Assembly (NCBI GenBank): GCA_022508535.1
Contig: JAFLUZ010000008.1
Span: 10,467-74,466, forward strand
Reading direction: 5' to 3'
Length of the DNA: 64,000 bases
Source of the DNA: Erysipelotrichales bacterium
Lineage (GTDB): Bacteria; Bacillota_I; Bacilli_A; RFN20; CAG-826
This document shows, piece after piece, positions 1 through 11,461 of this stretch (position 1 is its first letter; each line of letters opens with the position of its first letter). A program made the position numbers and the translations under genes. A model generated the notes under the pieces. The model was not told the origin of the DNA. It made no database searches and worked only from the letters and a program-made list of their open reading frames with translations.

Positions 1-3000
1 TCTTTGAAATATTAAAAGATGTCAGTGATTGACATTCATAAAATGCAGAATTTCCAATAGTTACAAGGTTATCTAAAGTACTTATCGATGACAAAGAACT
101 GCACCCATAAAATGCAGAATTTCCAATAAATGTAATAGTATTTGGAAGAACAATTGTTTCTAAGTTTTCATTATTGTAAAATACTTGCTCTCCAATTCCA
201 TAAACATAATAATTAATTCCATTATGATTAATAAAATCTGGTATAGTTATATTATTTGATGCATCAGAGATATATTCTGTCAATACAACACTTTCGTCTA
301 CTATTACGTATTTCATATTATCAATAGTTATTAACTTATCTTTTGTTACACCTAAATATACTGGTCTATTATTGTTCCAATACGAATCCCAATCACTTGG
401 TATGCTCTCCATTTCACAATAAATAATTAAGTTTGCGCAACTATAGAAAGCATGACCATCAATATTTTTAATACTCTTTGGAATTATGATTGAAGTTATT
501 AGGTCACAATTATAAAATGCAAAGTCACTAATTTTTTCTAATTTGCTTTCGTCCGCAAAAATTATAGTCTCAATTTTTTTACAATTATAAAAAGCGTGAT
601 CTCCAATGACTTTTAAACAATTTGGTAATTCCAATGAGTCAATTGAAGAACATTTATAAAATGCATGATTATAAATGGTTTCCAATTTGCTTCCATTTTC
701 AAATATAATTGTAGTCAAATTATTACAACCACTAAAAGCATAGGAACCAATACTTGTAACATTTCTTGGGATAGTTATTGATATTAATGAATTGCAACCA
801 TAAAATAAATAATCGCCTATTTTATCTAATTTGCAATCATCTTCGAATAATATATTTTCTAAAGCAACGCAATTATAAAATGCTTCTATACCGATATAGT
901 TTACTCCATATGGAATTTGTATAGAAGTTAATGATTCACATCCATAAAATGCATAATGGCCAATTATTTCTAATTTACTTTCATCTTCAAAAATTACTGT
1001 TTCCAAATATTTGCAATTATAAAATACAGATACTCCAAATTCTACAATAGTATTAGGAATAACAACTTCCCTAACATTAGTTTTCCCACTGAAAACAGTA
1101 TCATCTAAAAATCTAACTTCTTTTCCACCAATATATTTAGGAATATAACACTTGTTCTTCCCTACTTCATTGTATTTATTAATTGTGCAATATTCGTCAT
1201 TTAAAGTATATTCAAAAGCAAATGGCTTCTCTTCTTCTAACCAATGAGCATATACAACTAATTCAGTTGAACCTATTTTAAAATCAAATTCTTTCATTAA
1301 ATCAACATCTATGTACCAGTTATCGAATGTAAATCCTGCCCGTGTAGATTTTATAGATTTATCAACTTCAGAGCCATATTTTAGGTATATTGTTTCAACT
1401 TCTGTTCCACCATTTGAAACAAAAGTAACAGAATTAATTATTCTGTAATAATAATAATCGACTACCGCTGAACCATCTGGAAGTATTTTAACACTTTGAA
1501 TTGATGGCGTAACAAATCCATCAAATACAATAGGTTGTGGTGATACAATATCATCAGTTTTTCCTTTCAAAATTGATTTACTCATCAAAGTAAACTCACC
1601 ATCAAGATTCTCTTGATAATAATTAACTGTAAACGGAGTATTTGTATTAGCTACCCATTTGGCAACTAGTTCACAATCGTTTGGAATTGACCAAGTACTT
1701 TCTCTCACTTTTGTACCATTGTAGAACCAGCCATCAAATGTATATCCTGTTCTTGTGGGAATAGGAAGAGAATATGAACATCCAAAAGAGACAGTCATTG
1801 AATCTATTTTTTCTTCACCGCCATTTTCATTAAAATAAATTGTATATTCATTTTCTTTCCAATGTGCTAAATACTCTTTATTTCCAATAGTGCCACTTTC
1901 AATTTTTAGATTTAAAGTCGGTTCAAAATCAGAATTTTTTTCTGTCCATCCTAAGAATGTATATCCAACTCTTGTAGGATTTGGAATCGATACTCCTTCT
2001 TCTACAATATAATACTCAGGTGCATCTAAAAGAGTTCCACCGTCAAGATTATAAGTAATCGTATATTTAATTGCTTCCCAACTAGCTTTTAAAGTTAAAT
2101 CTGCTGAATATTTGTTCTTAGCATTGTTCACATCATATGATTCTAAAATCCACCCATGGAATGAATATCCTTCTTCATCACAACTAGCTTCGTCTTCGAT
2201 ATATTTCGATTTTTTAATTATGGTTGTTTCATTATCTGGCGTCCCACCATTTCCATCATATGTAACGTTGATTACACCACCAATGTTATATATGTAATCA
2301 ATACCAGTTTCATAGTCGCCAGCTTCAAAAGACTTGTTTGCTTTCACAATAGAAATTTGATTTTTTGCATCACTAAAATCGCCCAAATCTTCTAATATGA
2401 GTTGAGCATTATCATAATCACCTGATGACAAATATCTCATTGCTTTACCATACTTTGCAAGTGGTATAAATAAGGTACAAGTTAGGATAATTAAAACAAT
2501 CAATCCTGCCATAATTGGAGTACCAATTTTTATTCCTCTCTTAACTTTGTCTTTTCTTATGGCATTACGTGTTTTGATGTCATTTATTTGATCATTGAAG
2601 TTTTCGATTAATTGTTTAGAATCGCGATAATCTTTGATTTCATTTAAAATTTTAATAGCATTGGTGTATCCTGAAATTTTATCAATTTGAGCCGATTTTA
2701 TCGCGTTTTGATATATTCTTTCATTGTTTCTTAGGCTATTTGCTAATTCTAATTTATCATATGAATCTTTATAATTTGTAATTGTAGATAAAATTTTGAT
2801 TGCTTCATCAAATTTATAATTTTCAATACTTCTTAACGCTTTTTTGTATTTTGTTTCTTTTTCATTTAAGATCATATCATTGCATAACGCAATTAGATAA
2901 TTAACATCTTTATAATCTTTGATATATGATAGCTCATTAATTGCTTCATCATACATCTTTTTCTCGATGAATTTTTTTGCTATATCATAATTTATATCGC

Positions 3001-4489
3001 AAATACTAAGTTTACATTTTTCAATTAGAGATTCTACATCTTTATAATCTTTAATTGTTTCAAGTATTTTAAGCGCCTTTTTAAACTCTTTATTTTCTAT
3101 TAATGAAGTTGCTTCTAAATAATTTTTTTCTTTAATAGCAATTTCACACTCTTTAATTAACTCCTGAGCATCACTAAAGTTAGGTATTTCATTAAATAGC
3201 AAAATCGCTTGTTCAAAAAGATTATTGTTTTTTGCCACTACTCCTTTTGCATATATCTTTTCAAAGTTATCAATTTCAATGTTTTTTAAAACTTTTTGAT
3301 TATATTCTTCAAGAACAGCTTTATAATCTTCATCAGCAAACTCTAATGCCTTTTTGAAGTTTCCAAATTCCGTTAAAGGAATTTTAACTGTAACTAACTC
3401 ATTTTCATTGGAAAGTCTTAAATCAACGACAAGCGAAAGTATATATGCTCTTGCATTTTCTGGATTTTTATTTAATGCTTCATCGAGAACTCCACTCGCT
3501 TTCTCATAATTTTTATCATTAATTAAAATTTCTGCTCTTCTAAGCAATGATTGAATATTTACATTTTGAACAACTGATTGCGATGAATCACTTCTATCGA
3601 AAATCTTATCAATACCACGAGTTATGTCTTGAATAAAACCAAGTCTATTCATATCCTGTGCTTGAAATGATAATAATTCATCTGGTAGTTCATAGGCATC
3701 CATATTTCTAAAGCATGGAATTAAATACTTGTTTTTGTCTTTATTCATCAAAGACAAAAATCTTGACCATTCATTTTTTACCCATACGGCGTTAAAATAT
3801 TCTGGTTTAGTACCTAAAACAAGCATTACTTTAGAAGAATTCAATGCAGCAAAAATATATGGCTCATATTGAGTACCTAACTTCGATTCAAGAGTAACTT
3901 TTGCAAAGAACACTTTATAATTTCTTCTTGTTAATTCCTCATAAAGTTCTTGGGCAATAACTGAATCTCTTGTTCTTTTACCATATTCATCATTTTCTTT
4001 ATAACAAATAAAAATATCGTATGGTTTTTCGTTTTGCGAAACAGCAAGAATTCCTTTTTGAATTTTATTGATAGTTTCTGCTTCCGCTTGATATAAACGT
4101 TTTGCAACAACATCACTATTTTCAATTGCAGCTTTGTAGTCGATATCATCAAAAATTGATTTTAATTGAGTTCTATGGCATGTTGGTATTTTCTTACCAG
4201 TTTTTGGATCGTCAACATATTCAATTCCATAACGACAAAGTAAAAGTCCCCAATGCGCTTCGGCATCAGTTGGACATTCATTGACAATATTTTCATAAGT
4301 TAGCATAGCCTTATCAAATTCATTTTTCATTCTTAAGCTATTTGCTCTATTATGAAGCGAAGTTATTTTTAAATTATCTATTACTTGCGGTACTGTTTGC
4401 GTGGTTCCACAAAATTCACAAACGCATGTTGTTTGATTGTTTTGTACTTCAATTGTTCCACCGCACATTTTACATTTGAATTGTGCCAT
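1..4489 (-). CDS. Large single-pass membrane protein, 3' end outside window: N-terminal Zn ribbon + TPR + TIR domain + TPR-like repeats + TM helix + InlB-B (Listeria-Bacteroides) repeats + BspA-type LRR_5 repeats
   Basis: Absent from ORF track because it has no stop in the window. AGGAG RBS, ATG at 4489, MAQFKCKMCGG...CVCEFCG; TIR motifs PYDIFICYK...NAVWVKNEWSRF (~3600-4025); KDKVKRGIK followed by hydrophobic IGTPIMAGLIVLIILTCTLFIP (~2460-2530); PTRxGYTFxGW repeats (~1230-2290); IGxxAFYxCxxL LRRs (1-1100) in the same frame as the start. Confidence 0.9.
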   Translation of the reverse strand, partial: MAQFKCKMCGGTIEVQNNQTTCVCEFCGTTQTVPQVIDNLKITSLHNRANSLRMKNEFDKAMLTYENIVNECPTDAEAHWGLLLCRYGIEYVDDPKTGKKIPTCHRTQLKSIFDDIDYKAAIENSDVVAKRLYQAEAETINKIQKGILAVSQNEKPYDIFICYKENDEYGKRTRDSVIAQELYEELTRRNYKVFFAKVTLESKLGTQYEPYIFAALNSSKVMLVLGTKPEYFNAVWVKNEWSRFLSLMNKDKNKYLIPCFRNMDAYELPDELLSFQAQDMNRLGFIQDITRGIDKIFDRSDSSQSVVQNVNIQSLLRRAEILINDKNYEKASGVLDEALNKNPENARAYILSLVVDLRLSNENELVTVKIPLTEFGNFKKALEFADEDYKAVLEEYNQKVLKNIEIDNFEKIYAKGVVAKNNNLFEQAILLFNEIPNFSDAQELIKECEIAIKEKNYLEATSLIENKEFKKALKILETIKDYKDVESLIEKCKLSICDINYDIAKKFIEKKMYDEAINELSYIKDYKDVNYLIALCNDMILNEKETKYKKALRSIENYKFDEAIKILSTITNYKDSYDKLELANSLRNNERIYQNAIKSAQIDKISGYTNAIKILNEIKDYRDSKQLIENFNDQINDIKTRNAIRKDKVKRGIKIGTPIMAGLIVLIILTCTLFIPLAKYGKAMRYLSSGDYDNAQLILEDLGDFSDAKNQISIVKANKSFEAGDYETGIDYIYNIGGVINVTYDGNGGTPDNETTIIKKSKYIEDEASCDEEGYSFHGWILESYDVNNAKNKYSADLTLKASWEAIKYTITYNLDGGTLLDAPEYYIVEEGVSIPNPTRVGYTFLGWTEKNSDFEPTLNLKIESGTIGNKEYLAHWKENEYTIYFNENGGEEKIDSMTVSFGCSYSLPIPTRTGYTFDGWFYNGTKVRESTWSIPNDCELVAKWVANTNTPFTVNYYQENLDGEFTLMSKSILKGKTDDIVSPQPIVFDGFVTPSIQSVKILPDGSAVVDYYYYRIINSVTFVSNGGTEVETIYLKYGSEVDKSIKSTRAGFTFDNWYIDVDLMKEFDFKIGSTELVVYAHWLEEEKPFAFEYTLNDEYCTINKYNEVGKNKCYIPKYIGGKEVRFLDDTVFSGKTNVREVVIPNTIVEFGVSVFYNCKYLETVIFEDESKLEIIGHYAFYGCESLTSIQIPYGVNYIGIEAFYNCVALENILFEDDCKLDKIGDYLFYGCNSLISITIPRNVTSIGSYAFSGCNNLTTIIFENGSKLETIYNHAFYKCSSIDSLELPNCLKVIGDHAFYNCKKIETIIFADESKLEKISDFAFYNCDLITSIIIPKSIKNIDGHAFYSCANLIIYCEMESIPSDWDSYWNNNRPVYLGVTKDKLITIDNMKYVIVDESVVLTEYISDASNNITIPDFINHNGINYYVYGIGEQVFYNNENLETIVLPNTITFIGNSAFYGCSSLSSISTLDNLVTIGNSAFYECQSLTSFNISK

Positions 4490-4526
4490 AATCTACTCCT
4501 TTAAAACTTTAGTTTTAAATTGAACA

Positions 4527-4559
4527 AAAGTATCAAAAGCAAATCTGCTATGATACTTT
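4527..4559 (-). terminator. Hairpin (possible terminator or attenuator) between the 4-TM gene and the TIR gene
   Basis: AAAGTATCA...TGATACTTT inverted repeat with a short T-run on the minus strand. Confidence 0.45.
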
Positions 4560-4570
4560 AAAAATAATAA

Positions 4571-5269
4571 CTATTTTGATGATTTACATCTTGCACTTCT
4601 CTCATTCACTAACAAGAGAAGCTTATCAATTTGTTTTTCAAGTTCGACATAGTCTTTGTTATATAATGCATCTTTTAATAAGATATAGTTTTTATCCATT
4701 TCATCCTCAATTAATATCAAACTTTCATTTGAAACAGGATCACTATAATTTATTGAATCGTATAATTTATTAAATTTTGCTTTTAATGGTTCATAATTAA
4801 ATGTGACTAGCAATGATTTGAACTCTGTTTTCAAGTTATCGATGAAATGAGTATCGTAAATAATTTTATCATCTTGCCTTTCAATTTCTTCTTTTACTGC
4901 TTCTGTAGTAATGCATCCAATTGCTGCAAAACCAAGTAACACTACTGGTAAAATAATTGCTATCCAAAGCGGTACAGCAACAAACGCATTAACGACTGTT
5001 ATAATTATTGAAGTCAACAATGCAACAGACAAATAAATAATTCCTACTCTAAATATAGGTAGACCATATACTTTACTTTTTAAAGTATCTTTTTTACAAA
5101 ATGATACGTAAAATGTGTAGCCTTGTGAGGCAAATGCTACTACTGCGAATACATATGTTAGTGCAAATACAGTTGTATCCTTATGAGGGTATGGAATTAC
5201 AAAATAACAAACAGTATATAAAATAATTAGTATTGCCAAAACAATTGCAAATCTTAATTTGTTCTTCAT
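4571..5269 (-). CDS. Membrane protein: 4 N-terminal TM helices plus C-terminal helical domain (YSDPVS motif)
   Basis: 232-aa ORF with four hydrophobic segments, starting 3 bp after the SPFH gene. Confidence 0.8.
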   Translation of the reverse strand: MKNKLRFAIVLAILIILYTVCYFVIPYPHKDTTVFALTYVFAVVAFASQGYTFYVSFCKKDTLKSKVYGLPIFRVGIIYLSVALLTSIIITVVNAFVAVPLWIAIILPVVLLGFAAIGCITTEAVKEEIERQDDKIIYDTHFIDNLKTEFKSLLVTFNYEPLKAKFNKLYDSINYSDPVSNESLILIEDEMDKNYILLKDALYNKDYVELEKQIDKLLLLVNERSARCKSSK

Positions 5270-5272
5270 ATA

Positions 5273-6925
5273 TTATTCACCTCTTTTTTTACCACAAATC
5301 GGGCAGAATGGAGTCATGATGCCTTTTTGTCCACATGAACAATCCCATGCATCAATTACATTTTCAGGTCTTTTTGTTCCACATTGTGGACAAAATGGAG
5401 TTGTAACTTTATTGTGGCAATTAGGACATTCCCAAGTTTGCTCATTAGTTGTTCCAAGAGTTTTTCCGGCATCCACTGCTGGATTAACTGCACCTTTAAC
5501 AGAATTAACAACTTCTCCCATTACACCTAGTCCTACTCCTAATCCAACCATGCCATTTACTACACCTGTAACATCGCCTGCTGTTCCACCATTTCCTTGA
5601 TGACGCATAGCTTCAGTTGCAACTTGGCGTTGAGTTTCTTGTTGATAAGTGAAACCTTTAAGTTCCATTTCTCTTGCCTCTGCCTCCGCTTGAATTTTAT
5701 ATGCTTCTGCTCTTGCTTGTGCAGCAATTATTTCTTCTTGCGCAGTTGTTTGAGCTTCAACAATCTTTCTTTGTTGGGCTGCTTCGGCTTCAGCCTTTTT
5801 AATTCTTTCTTGTTGCACTAACAAGTATCTTTCAGCGTATTGTTCCTTCATTTTTTTGAAATTAGGATCATCATCTGGTGTCATAATTGAAGTAATATAG
5901 AATTCTGGCATCTCTAAGCCATAATCATCTAAAACAGTATTAATAGAATTTTTGAGTATCAATGAGATTTCTTCAATGTGTTCATCTACTTCAAGAATAT
6001 TTATATCGTGTTCTCTTATTGTCTTAGCTAACATTGATTTAACTTTTGTTATTACAAGAGCTTTAAATTTTCCTGTTGTTTCTTTTAAGGAATAATCGGC
6101 GCCCATTATTTCATTATTGTTAAATCCTTTTGATGATCCTACGAGCTTTAATAATAGTTTACGACCATTATTTACTCTAATATTGAATTGACCAGAAGCA
6201 CCAATTTCAATATGCAAACCTGAAACAGGATCAAACATTCTAACTTTTGAATCAGTACCCCACTTAATACCCATTTGGGTTGCTAAATTAACAAAATATA
6301 TTTCTGAATGAAATACTTCATCATTATTAGAAGGTAATTTATATAGTTCTTTTAGTAGAGGAATGTTACTTGTTGCAAGAGTGTGTCTTCCTGCGCCAAA
6401 TGTATCTAAAGCTCTTCCGTCTTTAAAAAATATTGCTTCTTGGGATTCGTGAACTATAAGTTGAGATCCTAAATTAAAATCTTCAAGCGGATGTTTCCAA
6501 ATTAAAGCATCACTTTCGCCCTCATATTTTATTACAGAAATTAAGCCGTTCTTTTTTATTTCTTCTTTTTTAATTTGTTCTTGAACATCAATCTTTGTGT
6601 TACATAATGGACATGTGTATGAACTAGCGTTTTTATCTGCAGTTAATTCACACGCACATGTCGGACAATGAAATTTTATCATAGCATTCACATCTCCATC
6701 ACTCATCAATTTATTTTTGCACGCAGGACATATTGCATTAGTGCCTAACGATTGATCACATACAACTACATTCTTACAATGCGGACAAGTCATACTTTTC
6801 ATGATATCTTTTTTTACATTAATCAAATGTCCACATTTGCATTTTATTATATTTTTCGAGAAAAAAGAGTCTGAGGCTTGATTTGGAGCCCCACAATTTG
6901 GGCATTCAATTATAAATTTTCCCAT
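5273..6925 (-). CDS. SPFH/band-7 protein (YdjI-like) with multiple N- and C-terminal Zn ribbons
   Basis: WKHPLEDFNLGSQLIVHESQEAIFFKDG..GAGRHTL and EIYFVN..IKWGT SPFH motifs; CxxC pairs at both ends; coiled-coil AEAEA region; GGAG RBS before ATG 6925. Confidence 0.88.
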   Translation of the reverse strand: MGKFIIECPNCGAPNQASDSFFSKNIIKCKCGHLINVKKDIMKSMTCPHCKNVVVCDQSLGTNAICPACKNKLMSDGDVNAMIKFHCPTCACELTADKNASSYTCPLCNTKIDVQEQIKKEEIKKNGLISVIKYEGESDALIWKHPLEDFNLGSQLIVHESQEAIFFKDGRALDTFGAGRHTLATSNIPLLKELYKLPSNNDEVFHSEIYFVNLATQMGIKWGTDSKVRMFDPVSGLHIEIGASGQFNIRVNNGRKLLLKLVGSSKGFNNNEIMGADYSLKETTGKFKALVITKVKSMLAKTIREHDINILEVDEHIEEISLILKNSINTVLDDYGLEMPEFYITSIMTPDDDPNFKKMKEQYAERYLLVQQERIKKAEAEAAQQRKIVEAQTTAQEEIIAAQARAEAYKIQAEAEAREMELKGFTYQQETQRQVATEAMRHQGNGGTAGDVTGVVNGMVGLGVGLGVMGEVVNSVKGAVNPAVDAGKTLGTTNEQTWECPNCHNKVTTPFCPQCGTKRPENVIDAWDCSCGQKGIMTPFCPICGKKRGE

Positions 6926-6926
6926 A

Positions 6927-7127
6927 CTAATTTTCTCCATCAGAGTCTGAAATTACGATATTATTCAATGCGAACTCTAAACACATAATCATAATTTCAT
7001 TTCTTGTTCTTCCAGTTTGTTCAGCAACATTATCCAACACTTTCACCAATTCAATTGGCATTCTAGCTGAAACAACAGATGATTCACCACGATACTTTTT
7101 TGCTTGTATCTCTAATTTTTTTTCCAT
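6927..7127 (-). CDS. Ribbon-helix-helix (CopG/Arc-like) transcriptional regulator
   Basis: VVSARMPIELVKVLDNVAEQTGRTRNEIMIMCLEFAL fits the RHH pattern; GAGGAG RBS. Confidence 0.8.
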   Translation of the reverse strand: MEKKLEIQAKKYRGESSVVSARMPIELVKVLDNVAEQTGRTRNEIMIMCLEFALNNIVISDSDGEN

Positions 7128-7151
7128 AGCAAAACTCCTCCATGCAATTAT

Positions 7152-7180
7152 ATAATATTACATTTGTATACATTTGTCAA
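7152..7180 (-). promoter_or_regulatory. Sigma-A promoter of the RHH-SPFH-TIR cluster, overlapping direct repeats (candidate RHH operator)
   Basis: TTGACA-17bp-TATTAT on the minus strand; TACATTTGT repeated at 7159 and 7169 (10-bp period). Confidence 0.65.
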
Positions 7181-7223
7181 CATCACATGGAAAAATTATA
7201 AGTATATAATTTTTATAACTATT

Positions 7224-7655
7224 TTATACTAAATCAAAATTATTAAATGCTTCTGATCTTATATCAAATACATCATCAATCTTAATAGTTGTGCCATCTT
7301 GCATGATAATCGCCTTATTTGTACTATCAAAACGCTTAACTATTCCTTCGATTGTAATATATTTACCACCAGTTTTTCTCTTGTCTTTTTGAAAATATGT
7401 TAGTGCTATTTGTGGCTTAATTTTGCATTCACTTAAAAGTAATAATTTCTCATTTAAAATCGCCATTTGATTTTCTGAAAGTTCAATTTTATTTTCGGTT
7501 TTTCTTGCTGTCTCGTGAATTACATCTTCATATCCTACCAAAGCTGCAAAAGGCGAAAATTGGGCAGCACGATCATTTATAGACATATGCTTATGAGTTT
7601 TTGACTCATGATGAGGAAGGTCAATAATATCATTATAATTTTTACTATTTATCAT
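7224..7655 (-). CDS. YolD-like protein (Y-family polymerase partner)
   Basis: YNDIIDLPHHES..MSINDRAAQFSPFAALVGY signature; ATGA overlap with the upstream polymerase. Confidence 0.85.
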   Translation of the reverse strand: MINSKNYNDIIDLPHHESKTHKHMSINDRAAQFSPFAALVGYEDVIHETARKTENKIELSENQMAILNEKLLLLSECKIKPQIALTYFQKDKRKTGGKYITIEGIVKRFDSTNKAIIMQDGTTIKIDDVFDIRSEAFNNFDLV

Positions 7656-9157
7656 GCTTTATGTCCTCCAATTTGCTTATTTCGATCAATCGTAGTTGCT
7701 CCTTCTTCTAAATCCATTCCTTTTATAACGGCGTTTTTCCCATATTTTCCTTTGATACTCAAAATAGTTTTTTGAAGTTTTTTCTCTTTATCTAGTTCTT
7801 TCTTTTCTTCTTCTTGTTTTTTCTTTAATGTCTCATAGTCCATAAAGATATCTAGTTGCTCATATTTTTGTTCTTTGATTTGACTCTCTTTTTGAACATT
7901 ACAAGCTACAACATAAATCCTTTTTACTAGTAATTTAGGATTCATTATTTTCTTATATAAATCCATAACCGCTGATGTTATAAGTCTAGTAGATGATGTT
8001 GGTCTTTTTAAATGAATTATTCCATGAGCAGGTTTTGGAATAGTTCTTCCATAATAATCCTTTGTAATTGGATCTTTTATATACTGATTTATCTTTGGAT
8101 TAGTAATGCATTCAATATCATATCCAATTGTTAAAACCATTTGATCAGTTACTAAATCTTTTTCAACTAAATCAAGCACGAGTGAATCTGTCATTTCTTT
8201 GACGACTAACCTTGCTTTTTCATAGGTATAGGCCTCTTGTAAAACTTGACCCGAACTCACACTATTATTTTCTGGTTTATACGCTTTAATGTCTTTAATT
8301 GTACAAGGCTCATAACCCCAAGCATGATCTATTAATAATTCGGCATTTATTCCAAAAAGTTCATATAGTAAATCTTCATTTTTAAGAGATACTCTTGCAA
8401 TATCTCCCATAGTAAACATGCCGTGTGCCTCAAGTTTATTCTTGTATCCTCTTCCAACTCTCCAAAAGTCTGTTAATGGAGTATGTGACCATAAGAGTTT
8501 ACGATATGACATTTCATTGAGTTCTGCAATTCTTACTCCGTCTTTATCTGCTTTTGTATGCTTTGCTCCAATATCCATAGCAACTTTCGCTAAATATAGG
8601 TTTGTTCCAATTCCTGCCGTTGCGGTAATACCAGTTTCTTTTAAAACATCTTGTATTATTTTTTTTGCAAGATCATGTGCAGATAATTTATATAGTTTTA
8701 AATAATTAGTAACATCCATAAATACTTCATCAATGGAATAAACATGGATATCTTCTTTGGCGATGTATTTTAAATATATTTCATATATTCTTGCACTATA
8801 TTTCATGTAATGTGCCATTCTTGGAGTGGCAGCAATAAAATCTAGAGCCAGACTAGAATTATTTTTTAATTCAAAATCACTAAATGATGAACCTTCTAAT
8901 ACTTTATTAGGTGCCTTCATTTTTCTTTCATTATTTATTTTTTTAACAATTTGAATTACTTCGAATAAACGAGGTCTTCCGGAAATCCCATATGCTTTTA
9001 AAGATGGAGAAACTGCAAGACAAATTGTTTTCTCTGTTCTACTTTTATCTGCCACGACTAAATTTGTAGTTAATGGATCTAAACCACGTTCAACACACTC
9101 AACTGAAGCATAAAAACTCTTAAGGTCGATGGCTATATATTGATGTTCTTTTTTCAT
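7652..9157 (-). CDS. Y-family (ImpB/UvrX/UmuC-like) translesion DNA polymerase
   Basis: YIAIDLKSFYASVEC, VYSIDEVF, GIGTNLYLAK motifs; C-terminal QIGGH. Confidence 0.92.
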   Translation of the reverse strand: MKKEHQYIAIDLKSFYASVECVERGLDPLTTNLVVADKSRTEKTICLAVSPSLKAYGISGRPRLFEVIQIVKKINNERKMKAPNKVLEGSSFSDFELKNNSSLALDFIAATPRMAHYMKYSARIYEIYLKYIAKEDIHVYSIDEVFMDVTNYLKLYKLSAHDLAKKIIQDVLKETGITATAGIGTNLYLAKVAMDIGAKHTKADKDGVRIAELNEMSYRKLLWSHTPLTDFWRVGRGYKNKLEAHGMFTMGDIARVSLKNEDLLYELFGINAELLIDHAWGYEPCTIKDIKAYKPENNSVSSGQVLQEAYTYEKARLVVKEMTDSLVLDLVEKDLVTDQMVLTIGYDIECITNPKINQYIKDPITKDYYGRTIPKPAHGIIHLKRPTSSTRLITSAVMDLYKKIMNPKLLVKRIYVVACNVQKESQIKEQKYEQLDIFMDYETLKKKQEEEKKELDKEKKLQKTILSIKGKYGKNAVIKGMDLEEGATTIDRNKQIGGHKA

Positions 9158-9295
9158 AATAGCCACTCCTTTCTTTATATTTATAGTTAGTATGTTGTAA
9201 TTAATTTATCATTAAACTTTTCATATAAAATTTTACCATAGTAACAAATAAAAAACACCTTTGAGATAAGATAAATCAAAAGTGTTTCTATGAAT

Positions 9296-9499
9296 TTATT
9301 TTTCATCTTTTCCATTTAAATATGTGGTTAATATAAGCATTATAAGTCCACCTATAAACATAATAAGCCCAACTATTGGTAAAAGCGGGATTTCAGATGA
9401 ACTTCTTGTATCAGCACTTATATAACTAGTCGCAAGAAATAAACCGCCTAAAACAGTTATAATGCAATATAATACAAATATACGATCTTTTTTGCTCAT
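9296..9499 (-). CDS. Small 2-TM membrane protein
   Basis: 67 aa, two hydrophobic segments, AGGAG RBS. Confidence 0.65.
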   Translation of the reverse strand: MSKKDRIFVLYCIITVLGGLFLATSYISADTRSSSEIPLLPIVGLIMFIGGLIMLILTTYLNGKDEK

Positions 9500-9541
9500 T
9501 CAATTATTCTCCTTTAATTAATAATTTAATTATTTTATTCA

Positions 9542-10168
9542 CTATACAAGTGAAATTGATATTACAATTAAAACTATGTTTGTGATTAACAAAAAAATAG
9601 CTGCAGACTCTAGCAAAAGCGATGATTTTTTATTCTTCATTCTAATTAAATATAAAACAAATAAAAATAAATCAACTACACAAAAAATTAATGTAATTAT
9701 TCCCATGGAACTATGATTATTTAAAGTACCACTTATGATACTATTATATTCATCAACTCTTACGCAATTTGCTAGTTCAAATGATGATAAATATTTATTG
9801 GTAAAATTGCATATTTCACCTAGAGTTGATGTACACGTATAGTTAGTTTTAGAAAATATTGGTAATCCGCATATAATCAAATAAATTGAGTTAATTATAA
9901 TTCCAAATATTGAAATAATTTTAAAGACAAGATTTCTTTTATGTTCGTCTTTCGACACTAATTCTATTTGCGAATCTCCATCACTAAAGTAACTTAATTC
10001 TACATCAAAAAAAGATGCCAATTTTTGTATATTTTCATTAGTTGGCAATGCAACTCCACTTTCATATTTTGCAATAACAGAGCGAGAAACATAAATGCTA
10101 TTAGCAAGTTCTTCTTGGGTAATACCTTTTTTCTTTCTCAGTTCTTTAAGTCTTTCAGAGAATTCCAT
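9542..10168 (-). CDS. XRE-family HTH regulator with C-terminal TM helices
   Basis: LKELRKKKGITQEELANSIYVSRSVIAKYESG HTH; three hydrophobic segments. Confidence 0.85.
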   Translation of the reverse strand: MEFSERLKELRKKKGITQEELANSIYVSRSVIAKYESGVALPTNENIQKLASFFDVELSYFSDGDSQIELVSKDEHKRNLVFKIISIFGIIINSIYLIICGLPIFSKTNYTCTSTLGEICNFTNKYLSSFELANCVRVDEYNSIISGTLNNHSSMGIITLIFCVVDLFLFVLYLIRMKNKKSSLLLESAAIFLLITNIVLIVISISLV

Positions 10169-10219
10169 AAAATACTTGTCTCCTTATGTTTTAATTATAA
10201 CAAAAGAAGTATACTTTTT

Positions 10220-10241
10220 AATGTTCTTTTAAAAGAACATT
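10220..10241. promoter_or_regulatory. Perfect 22-bp palindrome upstream of the XRE gene (candidate operator)
   Basis: AATGTTCTTTT|AAAAGAACATT. Confidence 0.45.
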
Positions 10242-10333
10242 TGTTATATAGTGGAAAACTCCAGTGTACTACCATTTTACACTATATCTTTATTAGTAAT
10301 ATCGTTGAAAAAAAGACTGAATTTCTTCAGCCT

Positions 10334-11461
10334 TTATTTCTTAAACATTTTTTTGAACTTATCAAATATTGATTCGTTTTTACCTTCAAGTTCTTTAAAT
10401 TTTTCTAACAATGCTTTTTGTTCTTTAGAAATTGTTGTAGGTGTTACAACTTTTACATGGATATATTGATCACCGTATATTCCTGTTCTAACATTTTTAA
10501 CACCTTTACCACGAACTTTTAGGATTTGTCCTGATTGTGTGCCACTAGGAATCTTAACTTCTACTTCTCCATATACAGTTGGAACAGTAACAGTTGTACC
10601 AAGTGCAGCATCTACCATAGAAATTGGAATTTCAATATGGATATTGTCGCCATCTCTTTCGAAATTGCTATGTTCTTTAATAGTAACTTCAATAATTAAG
10701 TCACCATTAGAGCCACCATTTAAACCACGTTCTCCTTTGTTTGGAACACGGATTTGTTGTCCTTCATTAATGCCAGCAGGAACTTTAACATCAACATTGG
10801 TATGAACATGTTTATAGCCTTTACCACCACATGAATCACATTTGTTTTTAATAACTTTACCAGTTCCTCCACAATGAGGACATGCAGATTGTGTTTCGAC
10901 AGTACCAAATAGTGTTTGTTGTCTAGAGCGAACACTACCAGTACCGTTACAATGGCTACAAGTTTCAATATCATTAGGGGATTTTGCACCTGTTCCGTGA
11001 CATTTATCACATTGTTCGTCAACATCTAGTGGAATAGAAATAGTTGTGCCATTAATTGCGTCCATAAAGCTAATACGGATACGCATAAAGGCATCATTAC
11101 CTCGTGTTGGTCCAGTTGGTCCTCGACGTGATCTTCTACCACCACCAAAGAATGAGCCAAATATATCGCCAAGATCTACATCTTGGAAACCACCACCAAA
11201 TCCGCCAAAACCACCGAATCCGCCTTGTCCACCATTTTGATCAAACGCAGCGTGACCAAACTGATCATAAGTAGAACGTTTATTATCATCATAAAGCACA
11301 TCATAGGCTTCTTGAATTTCTTTGAACTTTTCTTCTGAACCTGTTTCTTTATTATCTGGGTGATATTGTTTTGCTAATTTTCGATAAGCACTTTTAATTT
11401 CATCTTTACTAGCAGATTTAGAAACACCAAGTACTTCATAATAGTCTCTCTTACTCGGCAT
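10334..11461 (-). CDS. dnaJ: Chaperone DnaJ
   Basis: J domain with HPD, G/F region, four CxxCxGxG repeats. Confidence 0.98.

Follow-up and report, generated by a model that had tools for sequence, protein, structure and literature searches.

A mobile gene cassette of gut Bacillota combines a SamI-like SPFH protein and a four-transmembrane protein with putative TIR sensor-effectors

Introduction

In this study, we analysed a window of 64,000 nucleotides (nt) of contig JAFLUZ010000008.1 from an Erysipelotrichales bacterium (assembly GCA_022508535.1, positions 10,467-74,466), in which four neighbouring genes encode a ribbon-helix-helix (RHH) protein, an SPFH protein, a protein with four transmembrane (TM) helices (4-TM protein) and a large TIR protein. 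This locus represents one copy of a cassette that has spread horizontally among gut Bacillota and whose core consists of a SamI-like SPFH protein, a dedicated 4-TM protein and at least one sensor-effector. In each sensor-effector a conserved head, composed of a zinc ribbon, a tetratricopeptide repeat (TPR), a TIR domain and a further TPR region, is predicted to be joined, usually via one TM helix, to a variable ligand-binding domain. The cassette family is large and apparently undescribed. With a probability of roughly one half, we consider the cassette to be a ligand-triggered TIR NADase sensor that is organised or restrained by a platform of the SPFH and 4-TM proteins and that most likely serves an anti-phage conflict response.

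Results

All four genes lie on the minus strand and follow each other in tight succession in the order RHH, SPFH, 4-TM and TIR (Table 1). The list of open reading frames (ORFs), the Pfam matches and the structure model bear out the cluster as it had been proposed from the sequence alone (hereafter the original prediction). The 81 nt expected in front of the TIR gene were measured as well, and the SPFH and 4-TM genes are 3 nt apart; the equally narrow spacing given for RHH and SPFH (1 nt) applies only if the SPFH protein starts at its second ATG (6925), as the two genes overlap by 14 nt from the first one (6940). The TIR gene runs beyond the window and is intact in the contig, where it encodes 1686 aa (14955..9895 of L003, the label of this contig stretch). 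The base composition of the cluster shows no contrast with its surroundings.

The focal TIR protein carries one TM helix, the only segment found by the simple hydropathy scan with which TM segments were called. This lone helix (residues 659-677) predicts that the zinc ribbon, the TIR domain and the TPR region are located inside the cell, and the Ig-like repeats and leucine-rich repeats (LRRs) outside. The predicted ectodomain is built from BspA-type LRR_5 repeats (E 3.5e-114) and four Listeria-Bacteroides repeats (Flg_new, Ig-like; E 5.7e-38). The cytoplasmic head is strongly conserved, with a mean column identity of 63% over 20 sequences, and the four Cys residues of the zinc ribbon, a block at about residues 87-106 and the TIR core including Glu240 (E240) are invariant among them. 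The W-x-x-x-E context of E240 is equally retained in 20/20 sequences, and in the structure model the residue lies within a helix formed by residues 235-250. From the W-x-x-x-E motif of helix alpha-C, we take E240 to be the counterpart of the catalytic residues E642 of SARM1 and E100 of RUN1, i.e., a putative catalytic Glu. The head was modelled with a pLDDT of 86.4, and Foldseek returned 44 matches at E <= 0.001; those listed are all TIR domains, among them SARM1, AbTir (7uxu, target TM-score 0.78, rmsd 2.9), the plant proteins L7, RUN1 and RPV1, and the TIR domain of SPARTA. By its modelled fold, the domain thus matches NADase (enzymatic) TIR domains. As a single sequence the head had no match in the PDB at E <= 1, and as a profile it matched mainly designed TPR proteins and, weakly, TIR domains. 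A complex prediction of SPFH residues 120-555, the 4-TM protein and TIR residues 1-330 gave a score of 0.00 and was weighed neither way. The focal genome contains two more TIR-like stretches (G000:C12:31091-31537 and G000:C1:151394-151789), the second with an in-frame TAA.

In the SPFH protein the Band_7_1 domain is followed by an Ala/Glu-rich coiled coil, a Gly-rich low-complexity stretch and the C-terminal zinc ribbons, and the hydropathy scan detected no TM segment. The N-terminal zinc-ribbon block is an extra that is present in only 6/19 aligned sequences. CxxC zinc ribbons had been claimed for both the SPFH and the TIR protein and are indeed found in both, at either end of the former and at C6, C9, C24 and C27 of the latter. 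The cassette gene is the sole Band_7_1 gene found in the focal genome, and a sequence search of the PDB with its product returned only QmcA (E 0.1). The 4-TM protein was modelled with a pLDDT of 90.8 as four TM helices, three of which are also picked up by hydropathy, and a cytoplasmic C-terminal four-helix bundle; a conserved YSDPVS motif is located in this cytoplasmic domain. Its homologues form 70 clusters in a large protein database, none with a Pfam domain, and the protein itself matches neither Pfam nor NCBIfam, including the TPM domain. Its fold has no PDB match at E <= 0.001, and its structure-atlas clusters are all unnamed ('hypothetical protein'); a weak resemblance to LiaF-TM (TM-score 0.40) is below the bar of the tool. 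A role of the 4-TM protein as effector of a TIR signal was considered and judged unlikely, because the SPFH-4-TM pair also exists without TIR.

The recurrence of the cassette was followed by a profile scan starting from the TIR head and, within the genomes of the family, by counts starting from the 4-TM protein. The TIR head (residues 1-650) matches 50 of 401 family genomes at E <= 1e-5, and strong homologues (E <= 1e-98) occur in 21 of the 400 family genomes other than the focal one. At 19 of these 21 loci the SPFH gene adjoins the TIR gene on the same strand, 17 of the 19 with a detected 4-TM gene, and at the two loci lacking SPFH the contig ends 329 and about 1,000 nt upstream. SPFH is also adjacent at 6/13 family loci with more distant TIR homologues. 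In species-representative genomes, there are at least 678 pattern matches to the head alignment, and at least 661 loci encode a relative; the wider counts given here refer to the best 77 of these at least 661 loci, and at least 4 of the 77 share contigs with family loci. The 77 loci stem from metagenome-assembled genomes (MAGs) of the gut and from isolates, and belong to Clostridia (Ruminococcus, Oscillospiraceae, Lachnospiraceae, Blautia, Acutalibacteraceae) and Bacilli (Erysipelotrichaceae, Acholeplasmatales, 'Mollicutes'). By hidden Markov model (HMM) labelling, SPFH is present in 61 of them, always within 1.6 kb of the TIR gene and on the same strand in 60/61, the 4-TM gene in 53 and two or more TIR paralogues in 23. 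In 8 of the 16 SPFH-less loci the upstream sequence is shorter than 1.2 kb, and 2 more end less than 1 kb downstream. This co-occurrence goes far beyond chance; the recurrent neighbourhood on which the original prediction had staked its case is therefore found.

From the side of the 4-TM protein, homologues were found in 13/201 family genomes, the focal one included. At the nine loci that were fetched, SPFH adjoins the 4-TM gene in 9/9; RHH is found at 2 of them, and no more than 1 has a TIR homologue. Three TIR-less SPFH-4-TM loci (L020:6551-11593, L021:6258-11539 and L022:323-4321) also encode a YidD-domain protein and large zinc-ribbon-headed proteins, some with DUF5050. This points to an SPFH platform plus zinc-ribbon client as a general theme; two zinc-ribbon-headed proteins of such modules are matched weakly by the TIR-head HMM (E 1.6e-4 and 7.6e-4). 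Two further loci deviate in their gene content. In the family genome G352 (L071:4656-7133) the 4-TM gene is split into short ORFs, as is the first of two TIR genes, and both are therefore probably pseudogenes; a clostridial locus (L134:1540-4670) carries TPM-domain and zinc-ribbon genes by a weak SPFH match beside its TIR genes, resembling a SamGH set.

In a tree of 83 SPFH rows (HMM score above 200 and length above 350 aa), the 7 rows not linked to TIR are split from the 76 TIR-linked ones by a single branch (SH-aLRT 96). The tree mixes classes, and the SPFH protein of the family locus L018 nests among Clostridia; therefore, transfer between classes is indicated. In two MAGs titled Bacteroidales or Sodaliphilus (L091, L108) the SPFH protein is near-identical to, or nested in, that of Clostridia (L108 vs L137), which reflects either binning contamination or recent transfer.

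The part of the TIR protein behind the conserved head is highly variable. A single TM helix, starting at residues 372-665, is predicted for 66 of 107 complete TIR proteins and two or more for 14, whereas 27 have none; 25 of these 27 were rechecked, and since their best hydropathy window does not exceed 1.45 they are probably soluble. The description as a membrane receptor does not extend to about a quarter of the family. Arrays of TM-less and TM-bearing paralogues with the same kind of sensor domain (L143:2757-10553, L129:8001-16329, L150:1447-10628) suggest sensing on both sides of the membrane. Pfam was run on 100 C-terminal parts, including one duplicate pair, and assigned DUF6273 to 36, RCC1-type propellers to 28, LRR_5 to 11, Flg_new only to 2, RHS to 2 (L018, L106), MORN to 1 and FtsK_gamma to 1, leaving 19 with no Pfam domain. 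TIR paralogues of the same locus (22 pairs) have a median identity of 61% in their first 300 residues and of 37% in their last 300.

Directly behind the TIR gene, five loci carry a diversity-generating retroelement (DGR), made up of a bAvd-like gene and a template repeat, plus a reverse transcriptase if the contig is long enough. The 3' end of the TIR gene, within DUF6273, serves as the variable repeat, and in each element most or all mismatches fall on template adenines (Table 1); one of the five loci belongs to the focal family. DUF6273 is described as a C-type-lectin-like domain that is hypermutated by DGRs in phage receptor-binding proteins (PMC10743442, PMC11792537). A sixth locus (L118) has bAvd and reverse transcriptase genes, and the repeat scan found no repeat there. 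The same scan was negative for the focal locus, which thus lacks a DGR and ends in LRR/Ig-like repeats.

The cassette is an accessory insertion in the focal genome. The interval from dnaJ to rsmE spans 13.7 kb (window 9296-11461, L003:6375-9774) vs 3.1-7.5 kb in four genomes of the same genus. In four of the five same-genus genomes searched, namely the four that were fetched, the order is dnaJ, a helix-turn-helix gene in some, an S8 protease, a 141-aa gene and rsmE, and the cassette is missing. The insertion of about 9.7 kb comprises a Y-family polymerase gene, a YolD-like gene and the four-gene cluster. The S8 protease had been considered as part of the system and was rejected; it is core synteny, because it is kept between dnaJ and rsmE in the four genomes without the cassette. 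Integrases, transposases, a resolvase and a relaxase are found in cassette flanks. A phage-borne cassette was considered as well, and dropped because viral contigs (IMG/VR) contain only 2 cassette loci.

Elsewhere, further genes are inserted within the cassettes, namely FRG-domain genes (L072, L057) and, as single inserts in different genomes, a SIR2-like gene (L073:9021-9929) and DUF2971, HEPN, DUF4365, HNH and stand-alone TIR genes (L153:7408-8001, L156:7486-8001, L160:7515-7967, L133:7193-7984, L100:1927-2724). The single inserts look as if they were exchangeable accessory effectors. PADLOC recognises 6/32 cassette-internal genes at E <= 1e-8, with matches to PDC-S15 for FRG (3e-55), PDC-S31, PDC-S66/ThsB-like TIR (4e-41) and HNH, besides a weak match to an Aga REase (about 1e-9 to 1e-10). 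For 118 flanking genes, its matches include AbiLi/AbiLii, PDC-S01 (two loci), PDC-S02, PDC-S48, PDC-S31 and SoFic (two loci), and also DGR reverse transcriptases and generic ABC and E1 domains.

Expression of the operon is potentially controlled at two positions. The sigma-A promoter claimed in the original prediction is the best-scoring of 64 promoter-like sites in the region and fits because it immediately precedes the ribosome-binding site of RHH. Promoter-like sites are no more numerous here than in shuffled sequences (66.4 +/- 8.4), so the match alone is weak evidence. No sequencing runs are listed for positions 1-7300 of the window. Two tandem ACAAATGTA repeats in the promoter spacer are a possible operator for the RHH protein, which is probably an autorepressor of the operon. 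RHH_1 matches the focal protein with 18 bits (cut-off 20.5) and the homologue in L017 with 25.4 bits. The RHH gene, although present here as predicted, is an optional member of the cluster, being found in 7/19 family loci with SPFH and 14/77 wider loci. A type II toxin-antitoxin system was rejected, with antitoxin families of NCBIfam staying below threshold (BrnA 19 bits, cut-off 60; RelB-like 17.4 bits, cut-off 50) and a 555-aa SPFH protein as neighbour instead of a small toxin. The spacer between the 4-TM and TIR genes folds with a minimum free energy of -17.3 kcal/mol (z -2.86; 1/200 shuffles folds as well), and may confer attenuation or translational control that lowers TIR expression relative to the scaffold.

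Table 1. Features of the focal locus (window positions) and retroelements at related loci (positions within the locus named).
Feature	Position	Strand	Remark
sigma-A-type promoter-like site TTGACA-17-TATTAT	7152..7180	-	upstream of RHH; 11/12 matches
Two tandem ACAAATGTA repeats	7159..7177	-	within promoter spacer; read from sequence
RHH (CopG-like) small DNA-binding protein, 66 aa	6927..7127	-	RHH_1 Pfam
SPFH protein, cytosolic, 555 aa	5273..6940	-	Band_7_1
SPFH N-terminal zinc ribbons	6581-6940	-	CxxC pairs
SPFH Band_7_1 domain (PF13421)	5870-6481	-	Pfam E 1.6e-34
SPFH C-terminal zinc ribbons, two	5282-5434	-	conserved CxxC pairs (alignment)
4-TM membrane protein, 232 aa	4571..5269	-	structure model; no Pfam family
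Spacer 4-TM/TIR, 81 nt, two hairpins	4490..4570	-	folding prediction; second hairpin reaches TIR ribosome-binding site
TIR protein, conserved head (residues 1-155)	4025..4489	-	zinc ribbon, one TPR (profile match), beta-hairpin/helix region
Head zinc ribbon C6, C9, C24, C27	4409-4474	-	invariant columns
TIR domain (residues 159-281)	3647..4015	-	TIR_2 42.5 bits, cut-off 28; fold matches
Glu240 in WVKNEW motif, helix alpha-C	3770-3772	-	invariant 20/20
Cytoplasmic TPR-like helical region (residues ~305-640)	2570..3577	-	Pfam TPR families
Single TM helix (residues 659-677)	2459..2515	-	hydropathy 2.7
Predicted extracellular part of TIR protein, to residue 1686	1..2458, continuing 572 nt beyond window	-	Flg_new and LRR_5
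YolD-like gene and UmuC-like Y-family DNA polymerase	7224-9166	-	just upstream of cassette, same insertion
DGR	L127:10424-12477		template-adenine mismatches 16/17
DGR	L148:11451-12299		template-adenine mismatches 17/21, and 17/18 for second target gene; one template serves two TIR genes
DGR	L092:2885-4742		template-adenine mismatches 15/18
DGR	L153:10422-11250		template-adenine mismatches 18/21
DGR	L063:5683-6313		template-adenine mismatches 18/18; locus of focal family

Discussion

The cassette would work like a TIR sensor-effector and like a SamI-type scaffold module, and is a member of neither named system. For its biochemical steps, from docking to ligand and outcome, we infer the following sequence of events. 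The RHH protein would repress the operon promoter, and the SPFH protein would oligomerise and be anchored under the membrane by the 4-TM protein. The zinc-ribbon head of the TIR protein would dock on this platform, which might hold the TIR domains apart, or keep them organised, until a ligand engages the variable domain. Ligand binding would then lead to assembly of the TIR domains and to cleavage of NAD+, either as depletion or for the production of a signal, and the outcome would be growth arrest or abortive infection as a conflict response, most likely against phage. Docking is suggested because the head and the SPFH-4-TM pair are conserved while everything else varies, and because zinc-ribbon-headed proteins also accompany all SPFH-4-TM modules of the family that lack TIR.

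A platform that assembles or restrains its client, as put forward in the original prediction, has a precedent in SamI, which is recruited to the membrane and restrains SamH. In Bacillus subtilis, the SPFH protein SamI (YdjI) is described as cytosolic, with a Band_7_1 domain and a C-terminal zinc finger (PMC13713150). SamG, which has a cytoplasmic zinc finger and a TM segment, and SamH bring SamI to the membrane, and SamI restrains SamH (PMC13713150, PMC8581546, PMC11237479). In general, SPFH proteins are reported to organise membrane clients (PMC11237479). The cassette and SamGHI (YdjGHI) have in common an SPFH protein that is cytosolic and combines Band_7_1 with a coiled coil, a low-complexity segment and C-terminal zinc ribbons; in both, it is encoded together with membrane proteins, one of which has a zinc ribbon at its cytoplasmic N-terminus and then a TM helix. 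The TIR protein, with its N-terminal zinc ribbon and one TM helix, has this layout and may be a SamG-like partner. Unlike SamH, which has a TPM domain, the product of the middle gene of the cassette is a 4-TM protein without TPM, and the zinc-ribbon partner bears TIR, TPR and a large variable sensor domain. The cassette also differs from PspA-SamGHI in being mobile and patchy instead of core and in having no pspA at the locus; PspA (PF04012) was not found in the focal genome, which is 95.3% complete.

With the TIR immunity enzymes (Thoeris ThsB, TIR-STING, SPARTA TIR-APAZ, AbTir, SARM1 and plant TIRs) the cassette protein shares the TIR fold, the Glu in helix alpha-C, the fusion of TIR to repeat or sensor domains and the accessory genomic context. 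However, the cassette has no ThsA-type effector, cyclase, Argonaute or NTPase, and its TIR domain is situated behind a zinc-ribbon-TPR head, usually in a protein that spans the membrane, and is paired with SPFH and 4-TM. A ThsA-type partner was not found, nor was any effector gene conserved across the cassette loci. In multicellular bacteria, DGR-diversified C-lectin-type sensors linked to TIR or other effectors have been described, with predicted locations on both sides of the membrane (Dore et al. 2024, PMC10907252, in the part available). Common to both is the link of DGR-hypermutated C-lectin-type domains to TIR, although the focal locus itself has LRR/Ig-like repeats and no DGR. The systems in that part of PMC10907252 have STAND or MoxR-vWA NTPase cores and occur in Chromatiales and cyanobacteria, whereas in the cassette the sensor and TIR are located on one NTPase-free polypeptide with an SPFH/4-TM partner, in gut Bacillota.

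The absence of a named system is in line with the original prediction, in which the cluster had not been recognised as one: PADLOC-DB v2 has 0 families matching the RHH, SPFH, 4-TM and TIR proteins at E <= 0.01, and among NCBIfam models Thoeris ThcB4 stays below threshold (28 bits, cut-off 220). No description of an SPFH-TIR cassette, and no paper that combines SPFH with TIR in this way, was found in the literature searched, which included the TIR-system preprint 10.64898/2025.12.03.692087 and lay outside subscription journals and supplements.

An analogy, and only that, can be drawn to animal Toll-like receptors, in which one polypeptide likewise crosses the membrane once, with LRRs outside the cell and the TIR domain in the cytoplasm. 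The topology of the cassette protein is reversed, with an N-terminal TIR domain, no signal peptide and BspA-type LRRs, and its TIR is of the enzymatic and not the adaptor-recruiting kind; we claim homology for the TIR fold only. We tentatively raise the possibility, which we regard as doubtful, that these cassettes are bacterial counterparts of Toll-like receptors. An outward-facing repertoire of binding domains, which retroelements rewrite in some lineages, each wired through one TM helix to a TIR NADase silenced on an SPFH platform, would detect phage or other external threats at or before adsorption, and soluble paralogues would cover the cytoplasm.

Several observations weigh against a ligand-triggered, SPFH-restrained TIR sensor with an anti-phage role. 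The catalytic role of E240 is putative and was assigned from the W-x-x-x-E motif and not from a residue-level structural alignment. SPFH-4-TM pairs without TIR make up 7/9 of the 4-TM loci, where they stand beside YidD-domain and N-terminal zinc-ribbon proteins, and the pair is therefore a general module and not specific to TIR. Conversely, SPFH is absent from 6 loci whose contigs extend for 5 kb or more upstream and 2.4 kb or more downstream; 4-TM and RHH are retained in one of the 6. The term surface receptor does not hold for all members, given the 27/107 proteins predicted to have no TM helix. BspA-type LRRs and Listeria-Bacteroides repeats are typical of adhesins, and the ectodomain may therefore bind host or neighbouring cells rather than phage. 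Neither the empty PADLOC result nor the sub-threshold ThcB4 match ties the proteins to a defence family, and the defence-gene matches in the flanks are raw counts without a background rate, from which no enrichment is claimed.

A role in envelope stress or membrane homeostasis, with surveillance as in SamGHI or Psp, is unlikely. The SPFH protein would monitor the membrane and the TIR domain would make a second messenger, with no part in defence. The SPFH architecture does equal that of SamI (PMC13713150), SPFH-4-TM pairs without TIR occur in related genomes, and the 4-TM protein has its weak likeness to LiaF-TM (TM-score 0.40, below the bar of the tool); but no PspA was found in the focal genome (95.3% complete), the 4-TM protein has no TPM domain, and the cassette is an accessory insertion with a patchy distribution (strong TIR homologues in 21/400 other family genomes) and a class-mixing SPFH tree. 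Moreover, DGR hypermutation and paralogue arrays would be unexpected for a housekeeping stress sensor. We consider it quite unlikely that the cassette serves the biogenesis or quality control of surface proteins, in which SPFH and 4-TM would insert, sort or hold zinc-ribbon-headed type II adhesins and TIR would be an interaction or regulatory module, without killing by NADase activity. This would suit the adhesin-type ectodomains (LRR_5, Flg_new, DUF6273), the organisation of membrane clients by SPFH proteins (PMC11237479) and the paralogous SPFH-4-TM modules beside large zinc-ribbon-headed proteins and YidD-domain proteins, members of a membrane-insertion factor family (L020, L021, L022). It would not explain the strong conservation of the head (mean column identity of 63%) and of E240, its invariant and putatively catalytic Glu, the 27/107 TM-less members that keep their SPFH partner, e.g., in L143, or the effector-type genes (SIR2, HEPN, nucleases, extra TIR) inserted in cassettes elsewhere.

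Very unlikely, in our estimate, is the same sensor-effector logic directed at non-viral cues such as competitors, kin or host molecules (e.g., mucus glycans, antibodies), with growth arrest or altruistic death as response. Ectodomain families known to bind host or cell-surface ligands and the RHS-repeat tails in L018 and L106 are consistent with it, as is the report that DGR targets of gut bacteria include surface proteins and that the C-lectin-like fold of DUF6273 is a general ligand binder (PMC10743442, PMC11792537). However, the soluble members imply that intracellular ligands are sensed too, and inserted and flanking genes match the phage-defence candidates PDC-S15, PDC-S31, AbiL and PDC-S01/S02. 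That the genes are neighbours by chance or through shared mobility, with no functional link, has a negligible probability: the promoter-like match alone is not above chance, yet adjacency, order and strand are kept across classes (61/77 and 19/21 loci), the intergenic gaps are short or overlapping, and the SPFH protein belongs to a dedicated subfamily.

The preferred reading, a ligand-triggered TIR sensor on an SPFH/4-TM platform, would extend the range of bacterial TIR proteins. To our knowledge, the bacterial TIR systems described so far detect infection from within the cell. If a TIR enzyme is indeed fused to a diversifying binder exposed at the surface, it would sense outside, following the logic of pattern-recognition receptors of animals, and SPFH/flotillin-type scaffolds could be assigned a defined client and a testable function in regulation. 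Gut Bacillota carry the cassette frequently (species-representative genomes contain at least 661 loci with a relative of the head), and it is open to experiment because it is present in records titled as the cultured strains Ruminococcus flavefaciens MC2020, Pseudoflavonifractor capillosus An827 and Blautia sp. HCP3S3_H10_2. Potentially, the members targeted by DGRs provide a natural system in which programmable ligand recognition is coupled to an enzymatic output.

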